From IMG/VR virus record IMGVR_UViG_2529292908_000011: DNA of 34,254 nucleotides; one strand, 5' to 3'. A program made the position numbers and the translations under genes. Below the pieces are notes generated by a model. It saw nothing but the letters and a program-made list of their open reading frames with translations, was not told where the DNA came from and did not search any database. Position 1 is the first letter of the stretch. Each line of letters begins with the position of its first letter. The DNA is from a virus. Taxonomy: Duplodnaviria; Heunggongvirae; Uroviricota; Caudoviricetes. Positions 98 to 1,558 of this stretch are shown in pieces.

Positions 98-673
98 CTA
101 CGGCAGTGCTGGCCATTCAATATCCGGTGCAGTTGATGTATCAACACGGTTCAGCAACACCCGATACTTTTTCCAGGCTTCCAGCAACAAGGTTTCTTCC
201 TCCGTTGCGATCTCCAGATCCACAGCATCCTGAAGCGGCGCTATATGCTCACTGGCTATCTGCATCAGGCTGTTTTTTGTTTCTTCCGCCTCCCGGATCC
301 GGAACAGTTTTTCTGCTTCCGTATCCTTCACCCAGGCTGTGCCGTTCCACTTCTGATATTCCCCTCCCGGCGATAACCAGGTAACATTTTCCGGTAACGG
401 ACCGAGTTCAGAAATAAATAACGCGTCCCCTGATGCCACGTCATAAACCGTTTTACCCCGATGATCTTCAACGAGATGCCACGATGCCTCATCACTGTTG
501 AAAACAGCCACGAAGCCTGCCGGAATATCTGGCGGTGCAATATCGGTACTGTTTGCTGGCAGACCTGTATGAGGCGGAATATATGCGTCACCTTCACCAA
601 TAAATTCATTAGTTCCGGCCAGCAGATTATAAATTTTTATGGTCCGTGGTTGTTCACTCATTCTGAATGCCAT
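98..673 (-). CDS. tfa: tail fibre assembly protein (Tfa)
   Basis: 191-aa ORF ending ...[30 protein letters not shown], the conserved Tfa C-terminal motif. Its ATG overlaps the stop of the upstream stf fragment (TAATG). Sits at the end of the tail-fibre module. Confidence 0.85.
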
Positions 674-906
674 TACGCAAGCCTCACAATATAGTTAAAT
701 GCGATGTTTTTGACGGTGTTTTCCGCGTTACCAGCAGCGTTAACGGTGATGGTATGTCCATGTGAACCAATCGCAACGGAGTGCGTATGAGCACCAATAC
801 CGACAGTATGTGCGTGTGCACCTGCGCTTGCAGCAGTACCCGATACAGAGTGCGTATGAGCGCCTGCAGAAGAAGTGTTAACACTGTATTTAGAATAAGA
901 AGGCAA
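673..906 (-). pseudogene. side tail fibre C-terminal remnant (lambda Stf-like C-terminus without its N-terminal body)
   Basis: 77-aa ORF ...[65 protein letters not shown] matches the lambda Stf C-terminus as recalled. Only the last ~65 residues are present, upstream is non-coding, and the stop is coupled to tfa. Confidence 0.6.
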
Positions 907-956
907 CCGAAATAGATGATTAGTGCTGAATATTCAAAGAGTTAATAGCAAATTTG

Positions 957-988
957 GCATGCTTTTTACTTTTGCGTAAAAAGCATGC
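957..988. promoter_or_regulatory. perfect 13-bp inverted repeat GCATGCTTTTTAC-N6-GTAAAAAGCATGC upstream of the ykgJ-like gene (operator or bidirectional hairpin)
   Basis: Read directly: gcatgctttttac ttttgc gtaaaaagcatgc, in the intergenic region between the stf remnant and the ykgJ-like ORF. Confidence 0.35.
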
Positions 989-1087
989 CTCTATCCATAA
1001 AATCAAATAGTTATAATCTAATTTTGGAGAATGTTTTTTTCAGCGCCCTTTTATCTGATCGCTGAAAAAACAACAAATAGTATAAAA

Positions 1088-1417
1088 ATGAACAATCCGA
1101 ATCCATGCATGACGTGTGGTGCCTGTTGTGCATTTTTCCGCGTCTCTTTTTACTGGGCTGAAGCCGATGATGCTGGCGGAAACGTCCCGGTCAGTCTCAC
1201 TGAGCAAATATCTCCTTTTCATCGCTGTATGCGCGGCACCAATCAGAAAAATCCCCGATGTGTCGCTCTGGCCGGCCCCCCCGGTGAAAACGCATATTGC
1301 TCTGTTTACAAAAACCGTCCGTCCACATGCAGGGAATTCGCAATGTCCGGAGAAAATGGCATCGCGAATGAAGCATGTAACCGCGCACGGGAAAAATATG
1401 GATTTCCCAAAATCTGA
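1088..1417 (+). CDS. YkgJ-family cysteine-cluster protein (CxxCxxCC putative zinc/iron-chelating domain); moron in tail-fibre region
   Basis: ORF 1031..1417 with internal start [31 protein letters not shown]... at 1088 giving 109 aa; CMTCGACC motif plus later Cys residues. Opposite strand to the flanking fibre genes. Start could instead be 1031. Confidence 0.6.
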
Positions 1418-1530
1418 ATATTCTCCGCCGTGCAAAAATGCGAACAACATCACTTCACTAATCAGCCTGATATGGCATACTTAGCACGCTAACTATGATA
1501 ACAAACTAATACCCTAAAACTCATGGTTCC

Positions 1531-1556
1531 GGGACTGGTCGTGGTCCCGTTTTTTT
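1531..1556 (+). terminator. putative intrinsic terminator downstream of ykgJ-like gene
   Basis: GGGAC-N8-GTCCC hairpin followed by TTTTTTT at 1550-1556. Confidence 0.4.
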
Positions 1557-1558
1557 AT

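Follow-up and report, generated by a model that had tools for sequence, protein, structure and literature searches.

The window analysed here is the whole 34,254-nt stretch of viral DNA (Caudoviricetes) held in the IMG/VR record IMGVR_UViG_2529292908_000011. Near its left end, a lambda-type tail-fibre assembly gene (tfa) and a C-terminal remnant of a lambda-type side tail fibre gene (stf) are followed by a short region with a perfect palindrome, by a ykgJ-like gene on the opposite strand (encoding a CxxCxxCC cysteine-cluster protein and closed by its own terminator) and by a second set of tail-fibre genes convergent with it. An earlier note had taken positions 673-1558 for the scar of a fibre-module exchange within one phage, which would have brought in the ykgJ-like gene as metal-binding cargo. 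Based on the comparisons described below, we consider it probable that this region is instead a prophage-prophage boundary, at which a defective potB-type lambdoid phage, seen here at its attL-type end, sits inside the cryptic prophage Qin. The junction lies in an attachment (att) core, which points to an integrase-made junction at a secondary site rather than to a fibre-module exchange.

The two sides of the junction

Throughout this work, complete-genome comparisons refer to 5,426 complete E. coli genomes. In many of them the pinQ-side end of Qin (ydfK-pinQ-tfaQ-stfQ') is 100% identical to window 1-898, and 1,983 cover at least 80% of positions 1-1000. In FORC 064, the match opens directly after the pinQ stop codon and spans tfaQ and an annotated partial tail fibre gene, beyond which Qin continues with a J-related fragment and then nohA. 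The stf remnant of the window is this annotated partial tail fibre protein (stfQ'), and window 600-870 shares 93-99% nucleotide identity with the stf/tfa genes of sequenced lambdoid phages. The similarity to Stf C-termini claimed by the earlier note is therefore significant, and the coupling of the remnant to tfa stands; what does not stand is the open reading frame (ORF) at 673-906, since the Stf homology stops at ~870-879 and the 77-aa ORF extends to a TTG start at 906 by reading over the att junction. This ORF is not a gene, and a look-up of the 77-aa chimera returned nothing on record.

The other side comes from a different phage. Window 893-1700 is 97-99.9% identical to the ends of potB/potC-type prophages, in which the order potA-potB-YkgJ family-DUF4376-fibre N-terminal protein-Lom-J was found in 16 genomes among the matches listed, with potB abutted directly and no stf remnant. 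The complete layout (potB, then ykgJ…exo-xis-int, then potC(-potD)) is present in LZHX12 and SHP24, and over window 25001-33195 the potB prophage of SHP24 shows 99.9% identity. In normal lysogens, the phage-borne end …NKKATEIDD completes potB, replacing …NKKVELE; in the window the same end is an orphan. At the far side of the window, the first 32 codons of xis are kept before an IS5-family insertion sequence (IS), and this remnant links the window's prophage to the potB-type integrase/excisionase (Int/Xis) module, which in SHP24 comprises an Int with the arm-binding domain PF09003 and PF00589 and a Xis of family PF07825.

Where the two sides meet was determined by aligning the window with attL (S1-CAM-01-A, locus L001), attB (K-12 potB/potC), attR (SHP24, locus L006) and intact Qin. 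An 11-bp core, GAATAAGAAGG, is common to the window, attL, attR and K-12 potB/potC. Identity to Qin ends at 898 and identity to the potB-type prophages begins at 893, which places the crossover within 893-898, with 6 bp shared. Intact Qin reads TTTAGAATAATCAGGTGATCC at the junction position, and the target within it, GAATAATCAGGTG, matches the natural potB attB 13-mer (GAATAAGAAGGTG) at 11 of 13 positions and the presumed overlap GAATAAG at 6 of 7. In 1.47 Mb of retrieved loci, attB-like sites of this 11/13 quality occur at ~2e-5 per position. On the phage side, the breakpoint falls inside the 11-bp core although the prophage measures at least 34 kb (the portion in the window). A break in the core on one side and an attB-like site on the other together argue for integrase-mediated integration at a secondary site.

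The single-phage model (an older lambda-type stf-tfa pair displaced by a collagen/DUF4376 module bringing ykgJ, with the stf remnant as scar) owes its appeal to the two kinds of fibre genes that physically flank ykgJ, and in two other genomes a potB-type arm is indeed fused to a tfa remnant at different loci, so that such fusions can join a phage genome. It nevertheless fails at each point where the locus can be compared: the stf'/tfa block belongs to Qin and not to an older fibre generation of the same phage, standing in its usual chromosomal place directly after pinQ and being 100% identical over 898 bp; the breakpoint is the att core of another phage and no fibre-gene boundary; relatives carry potB, not stf, at that position; and ykgJ occurs beside other fibre and att modules. 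We regard this model as extremely improbable. The ykgJ-like gene itself was not brought in by the junction event, since it lies beside att in relatives with two different att/int modules. Two tail-fibre sets flanking a cargo gene can thus simply be two nested prophages, and the tempting misreading of such a layout as a module exchange is here corrected.

Most likely, the phage Int recombined attP with the secondary attB-like site GAATAATCAGGTG of Qin, in place of the natural site GAATAAGAAGGTG, and the recombination would have yielded both the attL-type junction at the core and the orphan phage-borne potB tail. The stretch from the core to ~1031 would then be the far arm of attP, with the palindrome, a site matching the consensus of integration host factor (IHF) and an arm-type Int site (Table 1). 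At the far end of the prophage we would expect the rest of xis, int, …CCTTATGAATAA(G/T)(A/C)AGGTGATCCACTTCC and then Qin J'-nohA, the predicted reciprocal junction reading core + TCAGGTGATCC… (remainder of Qin).

Table 1. Coordinates of the features discussed in the text (window positions; strand "." for sites without orientation)
Feature	Position	Strand	Evidence
tfaQ, lambda-type tail-fibre assembly gene of resident Qin	98..673	-	PF02413 E 2e-43; 100% identical to annotated tfaQ beside pinQ
stfQ', C-terminal remnant of lambda-type side tail fibre, pseudogene	673..879	-	PF03335 E 4e-6; phrog_295 727-794/794, E 9e-38
att core GAATAAGAAGG of potB/potC-integrating phage, 11 bp	893..903	.	alignment window/attL/attB/attR/intact Qin
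orphan phage-supplied potB 3' end (…NKKATEIDD, stop TAG 921-923)	894..923	+	potB coding sequence ends at equivalent position in L001
perfect inverted repeat GGCATGCTTTTTAC-N6-GTAAAAAGCATGCC, 14-bp arms, 6-nt spacer	956-969/976-989	.	within att arm
IHF-consensus site AATCAAATAGTTA, predicted	1001..1013	+	perfect match, 1 of 2 to WATCAANNNNTTR in 34-kb window
candidate arm-type Int-binding site TTTTGGAGA	1022..1030	+	sole match in window at <=1 mismatch; 9.2 expected by chance
second perfect inverted repeat TTTTTTCAGCG-N14-CGCTGAAAAAA	1035..1070	.	in 57 nt between arm-type site and ykgJ ATG
ykgJ-like gene, 109-aa CxxCxxCC cysteine-cluster protein	1088..1417	+	PF03692 E 8e-12
intrinsic terminator closing ykgJ unit	stem 1530-1549, T-run to 1556	+	8-pair stem, 5 GC pairs, then TTTTTTTATT
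DUF4376 tail-fibre accessory or distal gene	1559..2254	-	PF14301 E 7e-17; phrog_1141 tail fibre protein E 7e-80
collagen-repeat tail fibre (phage_tail_N + collagen triple-helix repeats)	2176..3576	-	PF08400 E 5e-42; PF01391 E 7e-38
lom	3635-4234	-	
5' part of lambda-type xis, cut by IS5-family element	33098..33195	+	encodes MSEQYLITLDEWKPKRFSLPITNTTLVKYGKL, start of SHP24 Xis

Several results weigh against this reading, or against parts of it. The junction is a single observation: none of the 5,426 complete genomes holds window 600-1700 in one piece, an exact search for the Qin-att junction found none in species-representative genomes, IMG/VR or the JGI metagenomes, and the predicted reciprocal junction was found neither in IMG/VR nor in metagenomes. 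The window ends inside the IS5 element interrupting xis, so that the reciprocal junction (int arm-core-Qin J'/nohA) lies beyond it, and an overlap of 6 bp is one at which an Int-independent rearrangement or a misassembly is conceivable. As to the arm, the palindrome has no T-run and was not reported by a terminator scan on either strand (tails TCTATCC and AAATTTG), and five of the seven aligned arm variants have one stem pair broken and uncompensated, with no pair changed on both sides. As to the cargo gene, a promoter scan upstream of ykgJ gave no convincing sigma-70 promoter (there is a TATAAT at 1012-1017 without a -35 element), no good Shine-Dalgarno sequence precedes the gene, and the AlphaFold model of its product, based on 47 homologues, is too poor to use (mean predicted local distance difference test score, pLDDT, of 55).

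Part of these results would also suit an inversion, translocation or deletion that joined a prophage resident at potB to Qin, or an assembly chimera, given that the junction is unique among all collections searched, that the crossover shares only 6 bp with its far end outside the window, and that the region is IS-rich and decayed. A random break, however, would hit the 11-bp core with a probability of ~3e-4 and an 11/13 attB-like target with one of ~2e-5 per site, and even a rearrangement at exactly these points would most simply be Int-mediated, which makes this explanation, in our judgement, very unlikely. We thus retain integration of the potB-type phage into Qin, and infer that Int catalysed the junction; the event would be strain-specific, since none of the collections searched contained either junction.

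Cases of phages inserted into resident prophages have been described in E. coli, and some of them cluster at ydfJ, the Qin locus (Nakamura et al. 2021, PMC8112680). The present case is similar to those (PMC8112680) in that a lambda-like phage sits within a defective prophage at an attB-like sequence, with ydfJ (Qin) among the described cluster sites, and differs from them in its target, which is a degenerate 11/13 potB attB in the stfQ' region instead of attB-in-PP_1/2/3, in having no homology to the ykgJ/ecpE intergenic region and in carrying neither effector nor stx genes. The type of event is ordinary, each of its components being of a known kind, and this particular secondary-site insertion is new: it adds a case in which a lambdoid phage of the potB/potC type entered the Qin remnant at a secondary site, an arrangement unseen in the complete genomes. 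The same authors noted ykgJ-region sequences at prophage ends and identified the intergenic region upstream of chromosomal ykgJ as the source of a prophage attB (PMC8112680); that the window carries their attB-in-PP_2 was ruled out, the homology to the K-12 ykgJ region being confined to the coding sequence.

The att arm and its palindrome

The arm (904-1087) was found in 684 of the complete genomes, mostly beside potB (84 at 95% identity or more, 586 at 80-90%). Seven variants were aligned, and none of them differs in the arm-type site or in the ATCAA and TT parts of the IHF site. In the SHP24 attR, the motif TTTTGG(A/G)GA occurs in three tandem copies between int and the core, and TTTTGGAGA is the one copy on the far arm, a pattern that, as far as sequence can tell, is that of arm-type Int sites. 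In the second inverted repeat, between the arm-type site and ykgJ, the stem is preceded by a T-run and followed by an A-run, so that this repeat would not be a terminator on either strand; it is not kept in the O157-type arms.

This architecture agrees with that of lambda attP/attL in several respects: the relatives' Int (PF09003 and PF00589) and Xis (PF07825) belong to the lambda families, a short core is common to attB, attL and attR, and three tandem arm-type repeats lie on the int side with one on the far arm beyond the IHF consensus, although the sites are consensus matches only. Their order and spacing resemble those of P'1-3 and of H1/P1 in lambda. Unlike in lambda, the target is the potB/potC junction, where the phage supplies a new potB 3' end, and a 34-bp perfect palindrome stands where lambda has its Xis/Fis/P2 sites. 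In this way a plausible attP arm is mapped for a widespread phage group, which includes effector-carrying phages of O157:H7 and Stx1a phages.

The palindrome was described in the earlier note as a perfect 13-bp repeat at 957-988; it is indeed perfect, with arms one pair longer. Folded as RNA it reaches -21.8 kcal/mol (z -5.4), and 0 of 200 shuffles fold as well; for either strand the hairpin is stable (-21.8 and -25.2 kcal/mol, z about -5.5). Chance alone would give ~1e-2 or fewer perfect inverted repeats with 14-bp arms and a short spacer in 34 kb. Its arms are better conserved among the seven variants than the variable spacer, and the broken stem pair in five of them suggests that the perfect form is a feature of the window's sub-lineage.

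The palindrome is present in potB-type arms with and without intact ykgJ, being kept in O157:H7-type arms though espK has replaced ykgJ there, and it is absent from the tRNA-type att phages that carry ykgJ. These tRNA-Ser-type attP phages have the same ykgJ-DUF4376 block, with homology to the window only from the ykgJ ATG onward, and where the window has its palindrome they carry a true terminator, which follows the tRNA 3' fragment. The link to ykgJ drawn in the earlier note thus gives way: since the palindrome is carried by the arm independently of ykgJ and lies between the core and the IHF and arm-type sites, it would be part of the recombination module, or of the control of its transcript ends, and would travel with the att arm. 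It could serve as the site of an accessory protein, at the position of lambda's Xis/Fis/P2 region.

The palindrome could instead be an operator for a dimeric regulator of ykgJ, as its place 99 nt 5' of the ykgJ ATG, just upstream of the perfect TATAAT, and the better conservation of its arms would allow. Given, however, that ykgJ occurs entirely without it in the tRNA-type att phages, that it is kept in hundreds of genomes with espK in place of ykgJ, and that the window holds no further copy of the half-site, we judge this distinctly unlikely. A canonical terminator is ruled out, there being no T-run.

An action as RNA, as a sib/tI-like hairpin that would end or destabilise int transcripts running across attP in the unintegrated phage, or as a phage-supplied 3' hairpin for the rebuilt potAB message, is possible, if doubtful. 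In the reconstructed attP the palindrome lies ~213 nt downstream of the int stop, on the far side of the core. In lambda, sib likewise lies past attP as seen from int. The likeness to sib/tI extends to the circular phage having its hairpin in this place and integration parting it from int; additionally, the palindrome stands 33 nt past the phage-borne potB stop, and the tRNA-type attP has its true terminator at the equivalent position. Lambda differs, in turn, in that the stem here is perfect and of 14 bp, short for RNase III, with neither a U-run nor a long imperfect RNase III stem, and the variants show no covariation, an uncompensated mismatch being present in five of the seven. A place in the recombination module, which covers both protein-binding and transcript-end roles, therefore describes the palindrome best.

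The ykgJ-like gene

The gene was correctly recognised from its CxxCxxCC motif. Its product matches PF03692 (formerly UPF0153) at 46.1 bits, against a cut-off of 23, over profile positions 1-85 of 85, and carries the N-terminal motif C7-x2-C10-x2-C13-C14. Among 47 homologues, cysteines 7, 10, 13, 14, 71 and 81 are invariant, and 58 and 97 nearly so; Cys 70 of the K-12 protein is a Tyr in the window's protein. It has the same length as K-12 YkgJ and 81% amino acid identity to it, the nearest species-level orthologues being those of Escherichia (81%) and then Citrobacter (74%). It had no match in PHROG, NCBIfam, PADLOC or PDB.

Compared with E. coli YkgJ, with which it shares length and conserved cysteines, the window's gene differs in being prophage-borne and in its distance from the chromosomal gene, with a synonymous divergence (dS) of 1.55, which is saturated, and a ratio of nonsynonymous to synonymous divergence (dN/dS) of 0.063; against the prophage allele of FORC_082 the values are 1.05 and 0.099. 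Nucleotide homology to K-12 ykgJ is limited to the coding sequence, from the ATG to near the stop codon. With synonymous sites saturated and dN/dS low, the gene has been under strong purifying selection for long and is no recent copy of the host gene. Its GC content (50.6%, against 52.5% for the whole window) is not distinct. The window allele (at least 90% nucleotide identity) is present in ~145 of the complete genomes, and the chromosomal gene (~80% nucleotide identity) in most. Among 50,697 phage records, no E. coli phage had an intact copy; the ends of Stx1a, Stx2a and other phages carry just N- or C-terminal fragments of it. The ykgJ copies borne by prophages fall into at least two alleles that are deeply diverged (FORC_082, locus L092 2694-3023; JE86-ST02, locus L002 5001-5325; locus L090 2685-2998), the FORC_082 allele having 94.5% protein identity to K-12 YkgJ versus 81% for the window allele, and some prophage copies are frameshifted pseudogenes.

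In FliB, the flagellin lysine methylase, a related cysteine motif binds a [4Fe-4S] cluster (PMC8598068); together with the conserved cysteines, this suggests that the YkgJ-like protein is a small cysteine-cluster protein that probably binds Fe-S or zinc. In biofilms, ykgJ mutants of K-12 form filaments (PMC8743551), and the proposed phage preQ1 methyltransferase DpdM is a DUF3109 protein that has been described as homologous to YkgJ (PMC10516641). There is thus reason to ask what a phage-borne YkgJ-family protein, with its putative Fe-S or zinc centre, does for the lysogen. As to expression, readthrough of potAB could reach ykgJ in a potB lysogen; in the Qin position, the gene would face antisense stf'/tfa.

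The cargo slot and the fibre genes

The ykgJ-like gene is accessory, occupies the place next to the tail-fibre genes where cargo is classically found, and has a terminator of its own. The terminator, which the earlier note had placed well, lies against the stop codon of the convergent DUF4376 gene and would shield the convergent fibre genes. The gene starts 57 nt past the arm-type site of the window, and ~55-60 nt past the outermost arm-type repeat in both att types, and it is also found beside other fibre modules and other att modules. Its presence is variable, as expected of a moron: some relatives have it, whereas espK and other cargo have taken its place in the O157-type arms sampled from a group of 586 genomes. 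With the morons and exchangeable effector loci of lambdoid prophages it shares the slot between the tail-fibre genes and att and the terminator of its own; unlike them, it is a housekeeping-type paralogue and no effector, its GC content does not stand out and it has no clear promoter. It looks less like a recent insertion than like the older occupant of the slot.

In prophages of Shiga toxin-producing and enteropathogenic E. coli, the gene has given way to effector loci, and pieces of ykgJ were observed around other cargo. In O157:H7 EDL933 (locus L088 2490-2712), espK and a fragment of nleB come after the att arm, and only the first 27 nt of ykgJ remain. Effector-carrying and Shiga toxin (Stx) phages with the same att arm, among them a Stx1a phage (locus L004 144-404), have the first 27-66 nt of ykgJ before the cargo, and P-EibE and 1720a-02 retain C-terminal ykgJ pieces. 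The exchangeable effector locus therefore seems to have had an intact ykgJ before such cargo was inserted.

In the two genomes mentioned above, the tfa remnant is fused to a shortened potB-type core (…CTACTG joined to AAGAAGGCAAC) and followed by espK. The fusion is identical in both and stands at different loci, beside tRNA-Ser in 2013C-4187 (locus L089 2354-2500) and beside dusA in Z1323PEC0013 (locus L091 2357-2500). It seems to be an older arm-to-fibre-gene junction that now travels within a phage genome.

The fibre gene that had been described as one active gene at 1559-3576 resolves into two ORFs in different frames, overlapping by 79 nt, which are two coding sequences in relatives as well. 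The collagen part holds a 45-nt tandem array of 12.5 copies with 87% matches (2446-3007), and the annotated collagen-fibre genes of relatives measure 1215 and 1494 nt versus 1401 nt here, which suggests variation in repeat number.

The host ykgJ locus

In K-12 (NC_000913.3, locus L007 2177-2288), a convergent 114-nt degraded lambda-type tfa remnant lies 66 nt downstream of ykgJ, with 79% identity to window 155-268 (E 3e-21); it is also found in loci L008-L010 (4396-4507). The E. coli/Shigella layout (ecpE, ykgJ reading towards a convergent tfa', then yagU) is the same as at the prophage end, and no tfa remnant was seen beside ykgJ in further species of Escherichia or in other genera (80 loci). 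On this evidence, the ykgJ locus of the host may be, or may once have been, a prophage end, or else the place where phages acquired the gene. Joining these elements, one may imagine ykgJ as a long-standing occupant of the att slot, the host locus as a fossil prophage end or pick-up place, the effectors as inserted into ykgJ and the palindrome as a new sib-like or directionality element; as a whole we find this rather unlikely. If true, it would mean that the prophage effector loci of Shiga toxin-producing and enteropathogenic E. coli arose by insertion into ykgJ.

State of the prophage

The description of the fibre as active is doubtful, since the tail region is decayed: J (4302-5840) is split into two overlapping ORFs of 231 aa (FNIII-A) and 200 aa (C-terminal receptor-binding domain), followed by ~350 bp without family match, and of the tape measure there remains only a 299-aa C-terminal ORF (9743-10642), which directly follows the gene of the tail assembly chaperone. 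A copy of IS1 is present at 28458-29156, and the IS5-family (ISKpn26-like) element that interrupts xis (33196-34254) has a frameshifted transposase (PF05598, PF01609), at whose stop codon the window ends. The prophage is defective and cannot build tails. That the J and H defects necessarily predate the move to Qin was discarded, as there is no such constraint and LZHX12 has different deletions; the J, tape-measure and IS defects can postdate integration.

Finally, an OmpC-like porin gene (8070-9206, minus strand; PF00267 E 3e-142) is flanked by the minor tail genes L (7173-7871) and M (9409-9750), an arrangement that recurs in 48 of the complete E. coli genomes, where the gene is annotated as ompC.

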